Source: a virus. Taken from it: a DNA stretch of 40,625 bases. Below the pieces are notes generated by a model, which was given only the letters and a program-made list of their open reading frames with translations, was not told the origin of the DNA and did no database searches. Numbering within the stretch: the first letter of the stretch is position 1; each line of letters begins with the position of its first letter. Shown piece after piece: positions 3,570 to 33,347 of the stretch. Location of the stretch: the UHGV virus genome UHGV-0137877. One strand, given 5' to 3'. The position numbers and the translations under genes are program-made.

Positions 3570-3646
3570 TTACCGTTGAGGTAATAATTATGCTTATTTG
3601 GTTTGGTGTCAATAGATATGAGTTAAAAAAATTACCCGTAAGGTAA
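3570..3646. promoter_or_regulatory. Leftward early promoter with two operator sites (TTACC-N5-GGTAA at 3570-3584 and 3632-3646)
   Basis: Two perfect 15-bp palindromes flank a minus-strand TTGACA -35-like and ATAATT -10-like hexamer pair. Confidence 0.6.
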
Positions 3647-3703: not shown

Positions 3704-4288
3704 TTATTGTTTGCTTTTTTCGTTCTGGTTGATGACAAATTCAATGTAACTTTCGATCTTTGCTTTCTCGGTTTCGGGTAACAATGCGTAGCGTGAGCGG
3801 TCATAGTTGATAGTCGCAGGGTCGTGCGGGTGAATCAGTAGTTCATATCCGTGACGCCCGAATGCGGATGCAACATTCTCCAGGGTGGAAATGGAAACGC
3901 TGACCTCATTGTTTAACAGGCGGCTGATTGTCACCTGGGCGACGCCGGATGCGCGGTGAAGTTTTCCCTGTGTTGAAAGGTCGCGGCTTTCGCTCATCCA
4001 GCGTTCCAGGTTGTGAGCCGCCAGCTGACCAATGTCGCTTGGGCCGACAGGCTGAAAACCTTCCTGAGAAAGCGAGCGATCGATATCAAGCCAGTTACGG
4101 GGTTTATTGGCGGCAGCTTCAATTTTTCGCGCAACCTGGTCGCCGATAACCTTCTTGCCAAGAGCCCAGCGGTTTACCAGATTTGCCTGAGTTCCAAGTT
4201 TTTCTGCCATCCGCGTCTGAACACCATTGAATTCACGGTCGATCAAGTCGTTGAGATTTTGCCTGCGGACGTCCTGGATACTTTTCAT
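3704..4288 (-). CDS. Prophage repressor (CI-like), two HTH domains, no S24 peptidase domain
   Basis: 194 aa; N-terminal HTH (QTRMAEKLGTQANLVNRWALGKK) and a second HTH-like segment (ASGVAQVTISRLLNNEVSVSISTLENVA); divergent from the cro-like gene. Confidence 0.7.
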   Translation of the reverse strand: MKSIQDVRRQNLNDLIDREFNGVQTRMAEKLGTQANLVNRWALGKKVIGDQVARKIEAAANKPRNWLDIDRSLSQEGFQPVGPSDIGQLAAHNLERWMSESRDLSTQGKLHRASGVAQVTISRLLNNEVSVSISTLENVASAFGRHGYELLIHPHDPATINYDRSRYALLPETEKAKIESYIEFVINQNEKSKQ

Positions 4289-4743: not shown

Positions 4744-4821
4744 TAAAAAACCAAATCTGGTTGATCAAATTTTCCAATTGTGCAAAATAGCCAATATCAA
4801 TAACAAAAAGGGGCGGAAAAA

Positions 4822-5034
4822 TTGAAGATAGTAACCAGAATGGAGGCCGCAAAAGCCGGGTTAAATCGCTATTTCACAGGAAAGCGGTGCCGTCACGGCC
4901 ATCTCTCTGAAAGGTATGTTCTGAACGGAACATGTGTTGAATGTGCAATGAATAGCGCCAACCGCCATCGTAATGAATTTGCTTGTGCACTAAAGAGTGC
5001 AAGAGGGGAAACCTATGGCAAGCAGCTGGATTAA
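4822..5034 (+). CDS. Small zinc-finger-like protein in the cII position
   Basis: 70 aa; probable TTG start with GGGG RBS; C-x4-H...C-x2-C cluster (CRHGH...CVEC). Confidence 0.4.
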   Translation: MKIVTRMEAAKAGLNRYFTGKRCRHGHLSERYVLNGTCVECAMNSANRHRNEFACALKSARGETYGKQLD

Positions 5035-6630: not shown

Positions 6631-6707
6631 TTACCTATCAGGTAACAAAATATTCTAAACTCTATTGATTTCGTGTCTTATGTGGTTTTTAATTACCTTA
6701 GAGGTAA
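6631..6707. promoter_or_regulatory. Promoter region with two operator sites (6631-6645, 6693-6707) and an ATGTGGTT element (6680-6687)
   Basis: TTACC-tatca-GGTAA and TTACC-ttaga-GGTAA; TTGATT -35-like (6665-6670) and TTTAAT -10-like (6688-6693); second site overlaps the RBS of the 6711 gene. Confidence 0.55.
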
Positions 6708-6710
6708 ATC

Positions 6711-7064
6711 ATGAGAAAACAGATACAGGCTCTTGGTCGACTCAAAACAGGCCAGATGAACAAAACAGAATCTGCGTATTGCCAGCACCTTGAGCAGCGT
6801 AAACGTGCAGGGGAAATCGCCTGGTATCGATTCGAGGGTATCAAGCTGCGGTTAGCTGACAACTGCTTCCTGACTGTAGATTTTGCCGTGATGTTGGCTG
6901 ACGGGCAGTTGGTGATGGTGGACGTTAAGGGAAGTAAGTCAGTCTTTACTGACGATGCGAGAGTCAAGATGAAGGTTGCGGCAGACAGCTATCCGTTTGT
7001 CTTTCAGGTTGCTTATCCAAAACCTAAAAAGCTCGGTGGTGGATGGGAGGTTGAGGAACTATGA
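6711..7064 (+). CDS. DUF1064-like phage protein
   Basis: 117 aa; pattern (TESAYCQHLE...W..FEGIKLRLA...DFAV...VDVKG) recalled from the DUF1064 family. Confidence 0.5.
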   Translation: MRKQIQALGRLKTGQMNKTESAYCQHLEQRKRAGEIAWYRFEGIKLRLADNCFLTVDFAVMLADGQLVMVDVKGSKSVFTDDARVKMKVAADSYPFVFQVAYPKPKKLGGGWEVEEL

Positions 7065-11519: not shown

Positions 11520-12116
11520 ATGATGCCTGCTGAACCTAAAACCTATAAACGCAAATCAACGCAATTTAAGCCGCTCACAGCAATGCAGGAGGCTTATTGC
11601 CAGTCATACATCAAAACGCCTGAAAACCAGACTCAGGCAGCGATTAACGCAGGATTCTCCCCAAATACAGCGGCAGTTAAAGCCAGTGTCATGATGCGCG
11701 ATGAACGCATTCAAAAACGGATTGCCGAGTTGATGGAGGAGCGCAACAAACGAATGCGCGTCAGTGCTGATTACGTTCTCATGCGCCTGGTGGAGATCGA
11801 CCAGATGGACGTGATCGACATCCTCAACGACGATGGGAGCCTTAAGCCAATCCGCGAGTGGCCGAAAATCTGGCGCACTACGCTTAGTGGCTTTGATCTG
11901 TCATCGACCATCATGAACATGAACGAGGATTCGATAGAGACAATCCTCAAAAAAATTAAATGGCCTGACAAGGTGAAGAACCTCGAACTGATTGGTAAGC
12001 ACGTCGACGTCAACGCATTCAAAGAACGCCTGGATGTTAATGTGAATGTGACAATTGCTGATCGCATAGCGGCAGCCAGGAAGAGACTGAAAGAACGTCA
12101 GGATGGCAATCAGTGA
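11520..12116 (+). CDS. Terminase small subunit
   Basis: ORF track 11442..12116; preferred ATG 11520; LTAMQEAYCQSYIKTPENQTQAAINAGFSPNTAAVKAS fits the small-terminase pattern; directly upstream of the large subunit. Confidence 0.6.
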   Translation: MMPAEPKTYKRKSTQFKPLTAMQEAYCQSYIKTPENQTQAAINAGFSPNTAAVKASVMMRDERIQKRIAELMEERNKRMRVSADYVLMRLVEIDQMDVIDILNDDGSLKPIREWPKIWRTTLSGFDLSSTIMNMNEDSIETILKKIKWPDKVKNLELIGKHVDVNAFKERLDVNVNVTIADRIAAARKRLKERQDGNQ

Positions 12117-13588
12117 CAGATACAGCGTTATCTCCTGAAGAGCAGTTAATCGAGGATATTGCAGGGTTCACTCACGATCCGCTTGGCTATGCCCTCTATG
12201 CGTTCCCATGGGGGGAAGAGGGGACTGAACTGGCACATGCCACCGGCCCACGTCAGTGGCAGGCTGATGCGTTCCGAGAGATACGTGATCACCTGCAGAA
12301 TCCAGAGACGCGCTATCAGCCGCTTATGCTGGCACGCGCTTCTGGTCACGGTATTGGTAAATCCGCATTCATCTCAATGCTGATCAACTGGGGCATGTCC
12401 ACTTGCGAGGATTGTAAGGTCGTGGTGACCGCCAACACCGACAACCAGCTACGAACGAAGACCTGGCCGGAAATTATCAAGTGGTCGAACCTTGCTATCA
12501 CGAAAGACTGGTTTACCTGTACCGCTACCGCGATGTACAGCAATGACCTAGGGCACGACAAGCGGTGGCGGGCTGACGCAATACCCTGGTCTGAGCACAA
12601 CACCGAGGCATTCGCCGGACTACACAACGAGCGCAAACGCATCATCGTGGTGTTTGATGAAGCGTCGAACATTGCGGATCTGGTGTGGGAAGTTGCCGAG
12701 GGTGCGCTTACGGACGAAGACACTGAGATTATTTGGGTGGCGTTCGGAAACCCTACACGTAACACCGGGCGTTTTCGCGAATGTTTCCGCAAATATAAAC
12801 ACCGCTGGAAAACTGCGCAGATTGACAGCCGGACGGTGGAAGGCACTAACAAACAGCAGTTGCAGAAATGGGTTGATGACTACGGGGAAGACAGCGACTT
12901 CGTTAAAATCCGTGTGCGTGGCATATTCCCTGATGCATCTGAATTGCAGTTTATCCCTACCGGTCTTACTGACGAGGCAATGAAACGGGTGGTAACCGCT
13001 GCGCAGGTTGCACATGCTCCGGTGATAATCGGCGTTGACCCGGCATACTCCGGCGTTGATGACGCTGTGATATACCTGCGGCAGGGGCTACACAGTAAGG
13101 TGCTGTGGACTGGCAACAAGACTACCGACGATCTGATTATGGCGAAGCGTATCGCTGACTTTGAAGACCAGTATCAGGCTGACGCGGTGTTCATCGACTT
13201 CGGTTACGGAACCGGTTTGAAGTCAATCGGTGACGGCTGGGGTCGTACATGGCAACTTGTTCCGTTCGGTGGCGCGTCTACTGACCCGCAGATGCTCAAC
13301 AAGCGTGGGGAGATGTTCAATTCATGCAAGACATGGCTGAGGCTGGGCGGCATGCTGGATGACCAGGAAACAGCAGACGACCTGTCGGCGGCAGAGTACA
13401 AAGTTCGAGTGGACGGTAAAATCGTTATCGAACCGAAGGAAGATATCAAGGAGCGGCTTGGGCGTTCACCGGGTAAAGGCGATGCGCTACTGCTGACGTT
13501 TGCGTTCCCTGTGTCTAAGCGTCTGCGAATTCCCGGGCAGCAGAACCAGCAAGGCAAGGCCATCACAGATTACGATCCCTATGCTTAA
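12113..13588 (+). CDS. Terminase large subunit
   Basis: 491 aa; Walker A-like ASGHGIGKS, Walker B-like VVFDEAS, C-terminal nuclease-like region. Confidence 0.85.
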   Translation: MTDTALSPEEQLIEDIAGFTHDPLGYALYAFPWGEEGTELAHATGPRQWQADAFREIRDHLQNPETRYQPLMLARASGHGIGKSAFISMLINWGMSTCEDCKVVVTANTDNQLRTKTWPEIIKWSNLAITKDWFTCTATAMYSNDLGHDKRWRADAIPWSEHNTEAFAGLHNERKRIIVVFDEASNIADLVWEVAEGALTDEDTEIIWVAFGNPTRNTGRFRECFRKYKHRWKTAQIDSRTVEGTNKQQLQKWVDDYGEDSDFVKIRVRGIFPDASELQFIPTGLTDEAMKRVVTAAQVAHAPVIIGVDPAYSGVDDAVIYLRQGLHSKVLWTGNKTTDDLIMAKRIADFEDQYQADAVFIDFGYGTGLKSIGDGWGRTWQLVPFGGASTDPQMLNKRGEMFNSCKTWLRLGGMLDDQETADDLSAAEYKVRVDGKIVIEPKEDIKERLGRSPGKGDALLLTFAFPVSKRLRIPGQQNQQGKAITDYDPYA

Positions 13589-13638
13589 TCCGCTTGAGGG
13601 GATAATGTTGTTGATATCCTCTGATGAGGATAAAACAA

Positions 13639-13658
13639 AGCCAGCTCATAGGCTGGCT
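13639..13658. terminator. Bidirectional terminator between the terminase gene and the convergent 124-aa ORF
   Basis: AGCCAGC-tcatag-GCTGGCT hairpin flanked by A-run upstream and T-rich downstream. Confidence 0.6.
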
Positions 13659-13678
13659 GTTTGTGATATGTCACGGTG

Positions 13679-14053
13679 TTATTGCTCGCTTAACTTCTGC
13701 TTCAGCAAGTAACCTTCAAGCATCCAGATTTTGTTTACAGCATTCTGTCGGGCAATCTTCCGACCAATTTCTGCATCAAAGTTTTCCGGGCTTGCACAGG
13801 CGCTCTCTCCGGTGACGGTGAAGCCGTTGCGCAGCACCAGGACGCAGAAAGTGAGAAGGTGCAGAGCATCAGGGGTGGCTTCGACATAAGGCTCTGGATT
13901 ATAAATAAGGTCATCTTCTTTAGCCTGATGATCCCCCTGCGCAGCAGTAAAAAAATGCTCACTGCAAATGAGACCTTCAATTTTCTCAGGAGTTACACGA
14001 GGTGCCGTTTTACCTTTCTCAACGATTTCTTTTTCGATTTGCTGGTCGTTCAT
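13679..14053 (-). CDS. Hypothetical protein (inverted insert between terminase and portal)
   Basis: 124 aa; ATG at 14053 with AAGGTGA RBS; opposite strand to all flanking virion genes. Confidence 0.6.
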   Translation of the reverse strand: MNDQQIEKEIVEKGKTAPRVTPEKIEGLICSEHFFTAAQGDHQAKEDDLIYNPEPYVEATPDALHLLTFCVLVLRNGFTVTGESACASPENFDAEIGRKIARQNAVNKIWMLEGYLLKQKLSEQ

Positions 14054-14063
14054 AATCTCACCT

Positions 14064-14088
14064 TAAAAAAATGCCCGGCGAACCGGGC
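14064..14088 (-). terminator. Rho-independent terminator between the tRNA and the 124-aa ORF
   Basis: GCCCGG-cgaa-CCGGGC hairpin followed by a U7 run on the minus strand, ending 10 nt before the ORF's RBS. Confidence 0.6.
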
Positions 14089-14257
14089 GAACTGGAAGCA
14101 ATGAGTTATGCCTTCCGTGGCTGTACTGGTTTACAGCATGAAGTCATCGCAATGGCGTCCTGCTGTAAAAAGGGCAAGGGCGGTGATAGTCCTTCAAGGG
14201 AAACCATCACCGCCAAGCACCTGGAACTTCTGGCATCACGGTCCTTAGGCGTGATTC

Positions 14258-14334
14258 TGGCGTGGCATGCAGGATTCGAACCTGCGACCAACCGCTTAGA
14301 AGGCGGTTGCTCTGTCCAACTGAGCTAATGCCAC
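14258..14334 (-). tRNA. tRNA-Arg (anticodon UCU)
   Basis: 77-nt cloverleaf folded by hand: 7-bp acceptor stem, D-arm GCTC/GAGC, anticodon stem ACCGC/GCGGT with loop CTTCTAA, T-arm GCAGG-TTCGAAT-CCTGC, discriminator G, encoded CCA. Confidence 0.9.
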
Positions 14335-14656
14335 AACGCTGAGAGCACTTAGCCTGTTAAGGCGCCACACTTTGTCGCGGCTCCATAAATGCTCTCATCG
14401 TTGTACCCTCGTCTCTTCCGAGGCGTCACACCGAATCGCCGGGATGGTGAATCCCCGTGCGCGGAATAAAACCGCTCGACTTGCACATTCCGGCTACCTG
14501 GTTCGTTTGCCACAGCCAGGGAGGGTGCCCCTTAAACGTATCCAGACCGCTATCGGCGCATGTGCCATACGCCGTACTGCTCAAAATAAAAGCTCACTCC
14601 ACCTGTTTAATTTAACGACAAGCCAGTCAGGTTAGTAACCAGAATGAGCCCTTTGG

Positions 14657-14734
14657 TTACCTGAAAGGTAATAATTAACGCGTTAAATGTCAACCTTCTA
14701 CGATAAATAAATCATATGTGGTTAAATTGGTAAT
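14657..14734. promoter_or_regulatory. Late-operon promoter region: operator (14657-14671), ATGTGGTT (14716-14723), GGTAAT (14729-14734)
   Basis: Perfect TTACC-tgaaa-GGTAA, then the same ATGTGGTT-N5-GGTAA arrangement seen at 33323-33340. Confidence 0.55.
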
Positions 14735-14761
14735 AATTTAATTGCGTACGGAGTCATTGAT

Positions 14762-14968
14762 ATGTGCATGGGTAGCTCACCATCAGTGCCTGCAACACCA
14801 GAAGTTCAGGCAGCACCACAGGAGCAGGATGCCGCCGTTGTTGATGCCCGCGACGAAGAAACACGTCGCCGTCGCGCTGCTGCTGGTCGTAGTTCTACGC
14901 TGCTTACCGGTTCTCAGGGCGACACATCAACCGCTAATACCAGCGGTAAAACGCTGCTTGGTCAGTAA
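14762..14968 (+). CDS. Small hypothetical protein upstream of portal
   Basis: 68 aa; GGAG RBS; its initiation region is almost identical to the portal gene's. Confidence 0.45.
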   Translation: MCMGSSPSVPATPEVQAAPQEQDAAVVDARDEETRRRRAAAGRSSTLLTGSQGDTSTANTSGKTLLGQ

Positions 14969-14982
14969 CCGGAGTCATTGAA

Positions 14983-16662
14983 ATGGCGGAAACAACTAAA
15001 GAGCGATTGAACAAACAGTTCGCACAACTTGAAAGCGAGCGTCAGTCGTTCGAGCCGCACTGGCGCGAGTTGAGTGATTACATCAACCCGCGTGGTTCCC
15101 GCTTTCTGACTTCTGAAGTCAACCGTAACGATCGACGCAATACACGCATTATTGATTCGACCGGGACTATGGCGGCGCGCACTCTCGCCAGCGGCATGAT
15201 GTCAGGCATCACAAGCCCTGCGCGTCCGTGGTTTCGCCTGGCTACGCCAGATCCTGAAATGATGGATTATGGTCCTGTTAAGTTGTGGCTCGAGGCGGTG
15301 CAGAACCGCATGAACGATATGTTCAATAAGTCGAATCTCTACCAGTCTCTTCCGCAGTTATACGGAAGCCTCGGCACATACAGCACTGGTGCAATGGCGG
15401 TGCTGGAGGATGACGAGGACATCATTCGCACAATGCCATTCCCGATAGGCAGTTACTACCTGGCTAACTCACCTCGTGGCAGTGTGGACACCTGTTTTCG
15501 CAAGTTCTCTATGACTGTTCGTCAGCTTGTTCAGGAGTTCGGGCTAAATAACGTCAGCGAATCCGTAAAAAGCATGTGGGAAAGCGGCACCTACGAGAAG
15601 TGGATTGAAGTGATGCATTCGGTTTACCCGAACATTGACCGCGATACATCGAAGCTGGATAGCAAGAACAAGCCATTCAAATCGGTTTATTACGAGGTTG
15701 GTGGCGATAACGACAAGTTGTTGCGTGAGTCCGGATTCGATGAGTTTCCAATTATGGCTCCGCGCTGGGAAGTTAACGGCGAAGATGTTTATGGATCATC
15801 ATGCCCGGGTATGCTGGCGCTTGGACCTGTTAAGGCATTGCAGCTTCTCCAGAAGCGCAAGTCGCAGTTGATTGATAAAGCCACCAATCCGCCGATGGTT
15901 GCTCCGACTTCCCTCAAGAATCAGCGCGCCTCCCTTCTTCCTGGCGACATCACGTATATCGATCAGATTACTGGTCAGGATGGTTTCAGGCCTGCTTATC
16001 TGGTTAACCCCAGTACAGCAGATTTGGTGGCAGACATTCAGGACACTCGTCAAATCATTAACAGCGCCTACTTTGTCGATCTGTTCATGATGTTGCAGAA
16101 CATCAATACCCGCTCGATGCCTGTGGAAGCGGTGATCGAAATGAAAGAAGAAAAACTTCTGATGTTGGGGCCGGTTCTGGAGCGCCTGAACGACGAATGT
16201 CTTAATCCTCTCATTGATCGCTCTTTCTCGATGATGGTGCGTAAAAACATGCTGCCGCCACCGCCTGACGCGATGGAAGGCATGCCCCTGAAGGTCGAAT
16301 ACATTTCCGTCATGGCTCAGGCGCAGAAGTCTATCGGCCTGTCCAGTCTGGCGTCCACGGTTAACTTCATTGGTCAACTTGCGCAAGCGAAACCAGAAGC
16401 TCTCGACAAACTCAACGTTGATCAGGCGATCGATGCATTCGCTGATATGTCCGGAGTGTCTCCAACCGTCATTGTTCCGCAGGAACAGGTTGAGCAGGCT
16501 CGCCAGCAACGGGCACAGCAACAACAGCAGCAACAAATGATGGCGATGGGGATGGCGGCGGCACAGGGTGCCAAGACGCTAAGCGAAGCTAAAACTTCGG
16601 ATCCGAGTGTTTTGTCAGCTATGGCGAATGCAGTTAGTGGTCAGGGTGGGCAATCACAATGA
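14983..16662 (+). CDS. Portal (head-to-tail connector) protein
   Basis: 559 aa; sits between terminase and scaffold/capsid; N-terminal region resembles podovirus connectors; Q-rich C-terminal tail. Confidence 0.75.
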   Translation: MAETTKERLNKQFAQLESERQSFEPHWRELSDYINPRGSRFLTSEVNRNDRRNTRIIDSTGTMAARTLASGMMSGITSPARPWFRLATPDPEMMDYGPVKLWLEAVQNRMNDMFNKSNLYQSLPQLYGSLGTYSTGAMAVLEDDEDIIRTMPFPIGSYYLANSPRGSVDTCFRKFSMTVRQLVQEFGLNNVSESVKSMWESGTYEKWIEVMHSVYPNIDRDTSKLDSKNKPFKSVYYEVGGDNDKLLRESGFDEFPIMAPRWEVNGEDVYGSSCPGMLALGPVKALQLLQKRKSQLIDKATNPPMVAPTSLKNQRASLLPGDITYIDQITGQDGFRPAYLVNPSTADLVADIQDTRQIINSAYFVDLFMMLQNINTRSMPVEAVIEMKEEKLLMLGPVLERLNDECLNPLIDRSFSMMVRKNMLPPPPDAMEGMPLKVEYISVMAQAQKSIGLSSLASTVNFIGQLAQAKPEALDKLNVDQAIDAFADMSGVSPTVIVPQEQVEQARQQRAQQQQQQQMMAMGMAAAQGAKTLSEAKTSDPSVLSAMANAVSGQGGQSQ

Positions 16663-32625: not shown

Positions 32626-32781
32626 GGTGGTTATCTCCACTTAGTGATTTTAATCACCACCGCAACGCCAATTACTGGTGGTGAACTGGACAAGGTTGGC
32701 GTACCGGCCTAAGTGGTACCGGCGTCCTTTCGGACCCCTGCCCAGCCCACCATAATTCGGATATAGCTGTGCTTAACGCAT

Positions 32782-32803
32782 AAAAAAACCACGTCTGGCG
32801 TGG
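32782..32803 (-). terminator. Rho-independent terminator between the two antirepressor genes
   Basis: CCACG-ccaga-CGTGG followed by a U7 run on the minus strand. Confidence 0.6.
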
Positions 32804-32894
32804 TATGCGCCACTTAGTAACTCGGGACGCCAATCCCGGCACTGGATTTTGCCAGTGCTCAATTACTATGGCACAAGAGGAGTGCGATGTAAAT

Positions 32895-33275: not shown

Positions 33276-33347
33276 TTACCTGAAAGGTAATATCTATTCG
33301 TATTCACAGTCTTTCTATCCATATGTGGTTTTTCAGGTAATAGAATA
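33276..33347. promoter_or_regulatory. Tailspike promoter region: operator (33276-33290), ATGTGGTT (33323-33330), GGTAAT/TAGAAT -10-like
   Basis: Perfect TTACC-tgaaa-GGTAA; same layout as the 14657-14734 region. Confidence 0.55.

Follow-up and report, generated by a model that had tools for sequence, protein, structure and literature searches.

The region considered here belongs to the virus genome UHGV-0137877, of which a stretch of 40,625 nucleotides (nt), called the window below, was analysed. The window corresponds to a podovirus prophage of the phiV10/epsilon15 type, genus Uetakevirus, and over positions 13300-15100 it shares 97% identity with phiV10 and with O157 typing phages 9 and 10. 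Within the packaging genes, and on the strand opposite to them, a complete tRNA-Arg(UCU) gene (14258-14334, minus strand) is followed by an open reading frame (ORF) of 124 amino acids (aa) that starts with ATG (13679-14053, minus strand). Both had been described in an initial annotation made from the letters alone, which placed them between the terminase and the portal genes. That placement stands, with the refinement that the interval between the tRNA and the portal gene contains the gp3 gene and ~430 nt of non-coding DNA. The same annotation regarded the ORF as unknown and the arrangement as a one-off insertion, and it overlooked a promoter, an operator and a conserved structured leader RNA located upstream of the tRNA. 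When these elements are included, the region can be read as the 3′ two-thirds of a leftward accessory unit in which a repressor would control a tRNA and a counter-defence cargo gene, the latter expressed by read-through; judged from sequence, this reading has about an even chance of being correct.

Homology searches showed that the 124-aa ORF is not an unknown gene. Its match to PF13876, the N4 gp49/Sf6 gp66 family, covers profile positions 1-82 of 82 with 118.5 bits against a cutoff of 27 (E 1.8e-34), which makes the profile-based assignment of the protein to this family, now called Acb4, a solid one. The ORF was already present in public phage records as a member of the gp49/66 family, its phiV10 counterpart being phiV10p03 (recorded as "similar to gene 66 of Sf6"), and what is new is that the function of the family is known. 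In two papers PF13876 proteins are identified with Acb4, a tetrameric sponge that sequesters the cyclic dinucleotides of the cyclic oligonucleotide-based antiphage signalling system (CBASS); eight of eight purified homologues bound 3′3′-cGAMP, and the homologues from phages of Gram-negative hosts additionally bound 3′3′-cAA (bioRxiv 10.1101/2024.12.30.630793). Judged from sequence comparison alone, the sole significant match in the PDB was Acb4 of phage SPO1 (9E4W), with a phmmer E value of 0.0025 for the single sequence and of 4.3e-5 for a profile of seven alleles, the next hit standing at 0.24. The protein of the window is predicted to be a cyclic-nucleotide sponge directed against CBASS. 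Among phages whose TerL proteins are nearly identical, variation of this protein is confined to the centre (aa 23-65), a hypervariable segment for which at least six unrelated-looking alleles of differing length exist; the first 22 residues and the final ~58 do not vary. Acb4 alleles that differ in one central segment offer a natural series for the study of ligand specificity.

The stretch that runs from the end of terL to the beginning of the portal gene was compared in 85 loci, namely phiV10, epsilon15, SPN9TCW, 80 IMG/VR contigs and four phages of Klebsiella, most of them with TerL proteins that are 99-100% identical. The comparison demonstrated that the site is a genus-wide conserved accessory slot with exchangeable cargo rather than the place of a single insertion. 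The 85 loci comprised 77 unique sequences of 1041-2203 bp. The distance from the tRNA to the portal gene was fixed at 648 nt, and all the variation fell between the terL stop and the 3′ end of the tRNA. The minus-strand cargo was Acb4 in about 41 loci, a tally that leaves out five loci with an unrelated 113-aa protein. Other loci carried a 140-aa phrog_4846 protein (19 loci), a 246-296-aa membrane/coiled-coil phrog_4780 protein (14 loci), the 113-aa protein just mentioned, a 115-aa phrog_3163 protein or, in SPN1S-type phages, an SPFH-like protein, and some had no cargo at all. In the Klebsiella phage ST512-KPC3phi13.3 the slot encodes a Tad2-like anti-Thoeris sponge domain (PF11195, E 4e-26; L004 2468-2989, minus strand). 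Two different sponge families, Acb4 and Tad2-like, are found at this one locus. If the slot is a shared plug-in site for counter-defence, the phrog_4846, phrog_4780, phrog_3163 and 113-aa proteins become candidates for new anti-defence or exclusion functions.

The boundaries of the exchange are sharp. In an alignment of the tRNA-proximal side of 65 unique variants, the tRNA, its trailer, the terminator at 14065-14088 (T2), the T-run and AAGGTGAGAT were constant, and the sequences diverged from the cargo ATG onwards. Across the 85 related phages, the whole segment from gp3 through T2 is constant. The cargo ribosome-binding site (RBS), AAGGTGAG (14057-14064, minus strand), is common to several unrelated cargo genes. 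At the other side of the slot, between the bidirectional terminator that ends terL and the cargo stop codon, a palindrome GTGATATGTCAC (13663-13674; GTGACATGTCAC in most relatives) forms the second constant edge in nearly all variants.

The terminators that the initial annotation had placed on both flanks of the ORF were recovered by a terminator scan. The hairpin at 13639-13658 is a bidirectional intrinsic terminator that ends terL on the plus strand and the cargo gene on the minus strand, and its stem shows compensatory changes in relatives (AGCCAGC../..GCTGGCT versus AGCCCGC../..GCGGGCT). T2 (14065-14088, minus strand) consists of GCCCGG-UUCG-CCGGGC followed by A and seven U, was called by the scan as GCCCGGTTCGCCGGGC then AT7 at 14088-14073, and abuts the cargo RBS. 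Its stem also has compensatory variants (GCCCAC/GUGGGC and GCCCGC/GCGGGC), and it precedes the cargo RBS in nearly all the Uetakevirus variants examined, several tRNA-less ones included; in L007 it is weaker or missing. The structured trailer proposed between the tRNA and this terminator is also real, because the 198-nt trailer folds better than shuffled sequences (z = -3.3) and the stem at 14179-14214 is present, with ~14 bp in the minimum-free-energy fold. What did not hold is the idea of a trailer stem succeeded by one terminator, since the stem is itself the first of two. This terminator, T1 (14167-14214, minus strand), is composed of the hairpin GGCGGUGAUGG...CUAUCACCGCC, a duplication of 6 nt and CUUUUU. 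Its identification rests on the covariation of the stem in the E. coli, Salmonella and Klebsiella versions (UGAUGG/CUAUCA, UGGCAG/CUGACCA and UACCAG/CUGGUA) and on the U-run directly after it in relatives, where CCUUUUUAC always lies immediately 3′ of the hairpin. In the window and a few identical loci only, the duplicated GCCCTT (14173-14178, minus strand) parts the stem from the U-run and may weaken T1. The interval between T1 and T2 (14089-14166, minus strand) is shared by relatives of different genera; in L005 it is set apart from T1 by the precise insertion of a further ORF that brings its own RBS. A small hairpin AUCACG/CGUGAU (14235-14255, minus strand), immediately downstream of the tRNA, is kept even in tRNA-less relatives, without covariation. 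No known RNA family accounts for the trailer or the leader: the hits in Rfam, for instance a RyhB-like resemblance of the terminator hairpin, were all at the level of chance.

An important consequence of this layout is that, because the U-run of T2 abuts the Shine-Dalgarno sequence, transcription of the cargo must start upstream and pass both terminators. There would be no room after T2 for a promoter of its own, so that the cargo ORF probably depends on read-through, and neither a promoter scan nor reading by eye found a sigma-70 consensus promoter within the trailer that could drive it. The locus could still be an ordinary moron with a codon-supplementing tRNA, where the transcript ends at T1 or T2, the ORF is expressed by passive leak or otherwise, and the leader has no effect on elongation, being a processed 5′ leader or an unrelated small RNA. 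We consider this rather unlikely. The terminators look canonical, AGA-reading tRNA-Arg genes are common in phages and AGA use is raised here, and the leader RNA is not homologous to the put antiterminator RNAs discussed below, all of which suits such a view. Against it, a terminator fused to the cargo RBS is kept across genera, in front of unrelated cargos and in several tRNA-less variants, a degree of conservation that is hard to explain if T2 served only to end the tRNA transcript. The leader RNA also contains invariant single-stranded blocks and helices that covary across unrelated phage families.

The candidate start of the leftward transcript is a predicted early promoter at 14665-14693 (minus strand), with a -35 box TTGACA (14693-14688), a spacer of 17 nt and a -10 box TACCTT (14670-14665). 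Relatives from E. coli, Salmonella and Klebsiella preserve TTGACA, the distance of 17 nt and TACCTT but not the sequence of the spacer; conserved boxes and spacing around a variable spacer are the signature of a promoter. The -10 box is overlapped by an operator-like palindrome, TTACCTGAAAGGTAA (14657-14671), of the form TTACC-N5-GGTAA. The window contains 13 such palindromes where 0.6 would be expected, starting at 3570, 3632, 4344, 4392, 4729, 6631, 6693, 11488, 11506, 14657, 31815, 32895 and 33276. The copies flank the gene of a helix-turn-helix (HTH) repressor (3704-4288) on both sides and head early and late operons, those of terS and the tailspike gene included. In the epsilon15 record the homologous palindrome is annotated as a repressor binding site, and beside the repressor gene of the window a PL-like leftward promoter at 3570 is built alike, with the operator after TTGACA-N17. 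This distribution suggests one repressor with operators scattered over the genome, as described for C1 of phage P1. Because the operator overlaps the promoter, the unit would be silent in the lysogen and turned on at infection or induction.

Other regulatory sequences were found along with the operators. The motif (A/T)TATGTGGTT is located on the plus strand at 14714-14723, 6678-6687 and 33321-33330, at a distance of 45-57 nt downstream from operator sites; gp3/portal, the ORF at 6711 and the tailspike gene follow the copies. The copy upstream of gp3 lies within a block of ~45 nt that hardly varies between the phages of E. coli and those of Klebsiella, and the motif may be a late-promoter or activator site. 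At 32674-32858 (minus strand), Rfam identified isrK (67 bits) and the C4 antisense RNA (66 bits) side by side, a pair that is the immI-like antirepressor control region of the P1/P7/P22 kind.

Between the predicted promoter and the tRNA, the minus strand encodes a structured leader RNA of ~180 nt (14400-14576; covariance model R1, 145 bits). It comprises five helices and two possible pseudoknots. The hairpin P1 (CGGCG/CGYCG) displays an invariant 11-nt loop, UAUGGCACAUG, with which another invariant block, CCGGAAUGUGCAAG, could pair, although neither side varies; a long-range stem has a variable apical insert; a 4-bp hairpin exposes a loop CACC that pairs with a downstream GGUG, with one covarying position; and a further hairpin reads CCUCG-GAAGAGA-CGAGG. 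In a first alignment made with MAFFT from 33 sequences less than 97% identical, 96.5% of the cells were paired, compared with 27-41% when the partners were slid, and 13 pairs changed on both sides. A model-guided alignment of 78 distinct sequences gave 97.2% against 28-46%, with 12 of 22 pairs changing on both sides. The stretch from the promoter to the tRNA contains near-invariant blocks across genera, also in tRNA-less relatives. A coding role of the leader region on either strand was ruled out by the covarying helices and by frame-breaking insertions and deletions in relatives. Rfam 15 gave no match at 14335-14660 (minus strand) with E values up to 10, none for the copies of phage P1, mEp460 and Stx2c phages with E values up to 1, and none for the Klebsiella copies in L006 and L007, and a literature search for the invariant sequence strings of the leader returned nothing relevant. 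The leader RNA is an undescribed family with strong covariation support.

This RNA is widespread. BLAST recovered it at ~80% identity in unannotated DNA of unrelated phages: P1 and P7; the lambdoid phages mEp460, cdtI, Ayreon and 2H10 and the phages converting for Shiga toxin (Stx) types Stx2c and Stx2a; and others. Of 5426 complete E. coli genomes, 1840 (34%) contain it, and the underlying annotation, almost always absent, was "none" in 39 of the 40 genome matches listed. Scans with exact patterns added copies in IMG/VR contigs and in prophages of many Enterobacteriaceae and of Erwinia. The window has one copy; one IMG/VR contig, L107, has two on the same strand, at 3993-4154 and 4800-4959 (minus strand), ~650 nt apart. 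Epsilon15 has lost most of it: relative to phages of the phiV10 type, a deletion (L002, ~2218-2292) took out the tRNA, one half of T1 and the greater part of the RNA and left a truncated remnant, while the Acb4 ORF and T2 were kept. The epsilon15 record annotates an "RNaseIII" site and a site for integration host factor (IHF) in what remains of the leader.

The leader RNA is joined to the tRNA by a long hairpin, CAACG-UGAGAGCA ... UGCUCUCA-CGUUG (14335-14403, minus strand), which closes at the 5′ end of the tRNA. It carries the junction CGUUGUGG, found in ~135 of 166 unique copies whatever follows. In tRNA-less Uetakeviruses and in lambdoid phages the junction leads into non-tRNA elements of 110-300 nt (L007, L154, L179, L184, L123, L165 and L089 from ~2740 onwards) that start GUGGUGAAUGCGCAGG... 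and end ...CACCAC-A(A)-CCA, giving an acceptor-like stem. Rfam neither recognised these elements as tRNAs nor gave any other match for them. Some have AGCUCA starts that resemble a D-arm, and the elements look like tRNA-like or tRNA-derived RNAs. This suggests that processing of the tRNA type sets the ends of these RNAs.

The same observations can be turned into a different explanation, in which the leader RNA is the main product of the unit and acts in trans or as a sensor. It could be a stable RNA, set free by processing of the tRNA type, that binds a protein or an RNA of the host, for instance as a decoy directed at a defence system or at a global regulator, or else a riboswitch that gates early transcription. 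A tRNA or an acceptor-like element flanks the RNA, which comes after tRNA-Ile in phage P1, before tRNA-Arg here and before GUGGUG...CACCAC-A-CCA elements in other carriers, and this suggests its excision by RNase P; the architecture, similar to a double pseudoknot with invariant loops, resembles that of a binder of a ligand or a protein. This explanation nevertheless appears unlikely, because no ligand, partner or target can be identified, no riboswitch or small RNA family of Rfam matches, and the near-constant place of the RNA right after early promoters fits a role in cis better.

The tRNA itself was the only one that ARAGORN called in the window (anticodon tct at position 35). It scores 73.3 bits with Rfam RF00005, against a gathering score of 29 and over the full model (1-71), and CCA is encoded, the 3′ end reading ...GCCACGCCA. 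It was already public, since several GenBank records annotate a tRNA-Arg and PGAP does so in ~500 E. coli records; the literature search found nothing relevant on a tRNA of phiV10 or epsilon15. Its position is conserved in the Uetakeviruses of E. coli, Salmonella and Klebsiella. In phage ZX5, attP was reported adjoining the integrase (PMC9782041). A complete tRNA, a genus-wide conserved position and an attP reported elsewhere (PMC9782041) rule out the remnant of an attachment site, as the initial annotation had argued from the intact tRNA.

Codon use is consistent with a role in decoding. In a greedy set of ORFs of the window (12,566 codons, a few doubtful ORFs included), AGA occurs at 6.8 and AGG at 5.4 per 1000 codons. 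The averages of E. coli are ~2 and ~1 per 1000, so that the phage uses AGA about three times as often as E. coli does. AGA use peaks in the early genes (8.7 per 1000) and in the tail genes, with 16 AGA codons in the tailspike gene. Supplementation of AGA decoding by the tRNA is plausible, and probably modest.

A second function was considered for the tRNA, namely that it mainly replaces a host tRNA-Arg cut by an anticodon nuclease, which would make the whole unit an anti-defence island. Its neighbours are sponge genes, Acb4 here and Tad2-like in the Klebsiella relative, and the closest host tRNA-Arg is 85.9% identical to it, with differences in the acceptor and anticodon stems. This proposal is quite improbable. 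Apart from colicin D, no E. coli defence system is known to target tRNA-Arg(UCU); the anticodon loop CUUCUAA is presumably unchanged with respect to argU; and in relatives non-tRNA elements take the place of the tRNA.

The plus strand of the region contains ORFs of 85 aa (14071-14328) and 87 aa (14372-14635), and if these were real genes the RNA features would be coincidental. The 85-aa ORF has in its favour a homologue, phiV10p04, annotated in NC_007804. It is antisense to the high-scoring tRNA and to the trailer, and the 87-aa ORF starts with TTG, overlaps the covarying helices and suffers, in relatives, insertions and deletions that are not multiples of three; the locus tags of the phiV10 record skip PhiV10p05 in this interval. 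That these are genes is thus hardly credible, and phiV10p04, as the public record has it, is in all likelihood a false gene call.

The context of the leader RNA in other phages provides a clue to its role. In lambdoid carriers a cro-like gene comes first, followed by a cI-like gene of the LexA/S24 type with an intrinsic terminator behind it; next lies a promoter with operators, and the leader RNA starts 10-50 nt after the predicted start of this early-left promoter, the position of nutL in lambda or of putL in HK022. The genes that follow encode excisionase-like, ParB-HTH, DUF2303 and RdgC proteins, and no N-like protein was found among them. After the RNA come 350-1000 untranslated nt, in which, at two of the lambdoid loci, a reverse-oriented gene and then a terminator-like hairpin were seen by eye. 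The lambdoid phages that carry the leader RNA also have the isrK/C4 pair, ~2 kb upstream of cI. In the window, the RNA begins ~80 nt from the predicted start. Phage P1 is the exception to the promoter-proximal position, because the RNA lies ~2.3 kb into the C1-controlled ban operon, 15 nt after tRNA-Ile and 72 nt before ban. Adjacency to a tRNA was ruled out as a general trait of the leader RNA, since it holds only in Uetakeviruses and P1.

The favoured reading of the region joins these elements into one pathway. Transcription would start at the operator-overlapped promoter, and the structured leader RNA would be made first. RNase P and 3′ processing would free the tRNA for AGA decoding, and the polymerases that pass T1 and T2 would express Acb4, which would sequester the cyclic-nucleotide signals of CBASS early in infection. 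In the least certain step, the leader RNA would act on the transcribing polymerase and promote read-through, as a functional analogue of the put RNA of HK022. That the leader causes antitermination is the most speculative element; its position, the carriers without N, the long untranslated stretches and the terminators located before the cargo speak for it. The RNA might represent a new class of factor-independent processive antiterminators that act as nascent RNA and serve the early-left operons of lambdoid phages without N, the ban operon of P1 and the Uetakevirus cargo, a generalisation that we advance tentatively and regard as doubtful.

Several observations count against the favoured reading. 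A consensus promoter scan called no sigma-70 site at 14665-14693, which is explained by the weak -10 box, and the operator could serve a rightward gp3/portal promoter instead. AGA is absent from the portal, scaffold and capsid genes; with the most highly expressed head genes devoid of this codon, the benefit of the tRNA may be small. Since epsilon15 lost most of the leader RNA and keeps Acb4 and T2, the RNA is not indispensable there. The terminator at 13639-13658 looks ordinary, yet it would have to halt an antiterminated polymerase, which would otherwise continue antisense into terL. Homology of the leader to the put RNAs of HK022 and HK639 found no support, because alignments gave z values of -0.4 to 1.8, compared with 7-10 among put RNAs, and the covariance model R1 found nothing in the HK022 or HK639 loci. 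For the cargo protein, the ligand contacts of SPO1 Acb4 (K36, F48, E49, V56, Y57, F62, N63, I66, T70 and K81) were compared, and only about three of the ten are identical (F48=F78, F62=F92 and I66=I96). Two changes are conservative (V56 to C86 and N63 to D93), E49, Y57 and T70 are replaced by T79, A87 and I100, and D62, which stands where SPO1 Acb4 has the guanine-reading K36, borders the hypervariable segment.

In the surrounding genome, terL (12113-13588, plus strand) has no Pfam hit, and the C-terminal 150 aa of its product are 99% identical to the annotated large terminase of phiV10. The gp3 gene (14762-14968, plus strand) encodes 68 aa, and the portal gene occupies 14983-16662 (PF12236, E 3e-187). 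A small terminase (PF03592) and a major capsid protein (PF20911) are further neighbours of the packaging and head functions.

The significance of the unit lies in its two halves. On the cargo side, Uetakeviruses have one exchange point for counter-defence genes, and the promoter, leader RNA, tRNA and terminator-RBS junction in front of it are shared. On the RNA side, three unrelated phage groups begin early transcripts with a leader that belongs to no Rfam family. Should this leader modify RNA polymerase, the expression of early-left genes in many lambdoid prophages that lack N would be accounted for, and the RNA would be put-like in function, structurally distinct and far more widespread, being present in about one third of complete E. 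coli genomes.

The comparison with known systems begins with the put RNAs of HK022 and HK639, which the leader RNA resembles in its place just downstream of the early-left promoter of lambdoid carriers, with no N following. In HK639 a "putL-like antiterminator RNA" is annotated at the equivalent place, and in both cases there is one copy, on the left side. The base of the leader hairpin P1, CGGCG...CAUG-CGUCG with a G.U wobble, matches C10-G14/C26-G34 of putL, a segment that includes U28, which is essential for the binding of RNA polymerase. The likeness is limited to a local motif of ~19 nt and is a lead, not evidence of homology. Unlike put, with ~70 nt and two stems, the leader RNA has ~180 nt and five helices, and G35 of put is not conserved in it; the literature search on put-like RNAs in prophages found nothing relevant. 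The tRNA is comparable to the rare-codon tRNAs of phages, such as ileZ-argN-argO of Stx phages, in being an AGA-reading tRNA-Arg in an AGA-rich temperate coliphage. It differs from them in its location between a structured RNA and two terminators, inside the packaging/head module and on the strand opposite to it, and in being interchangeable, in relatives of the window, with non-tRNA elements. In P1, too, tRNAs belong to an early operon under repressor control, the ban operon, in which the same leader RNA is found. Like Acb4 of SPO1, the cargo product is a small phage protein with a full-length match to the hidden Markov model of the family and with F78, F92 and I96 kept; it is ~28 residues longer and contains the hypervariable segment. 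Finally, the slot shares with the morons and anti-defence hot spots of temperate phages a strand-inverted, terminator-bounded cargo that is placed between conserved core genes, varies among near-identical phages and includes Acb4 and Tad2-like sponges. In contrast to those systems, its cargo has no promoter of its own and plugs in behind a shared terminator and RBS, preceded by a shared promoter, leader RNA and tRNA.

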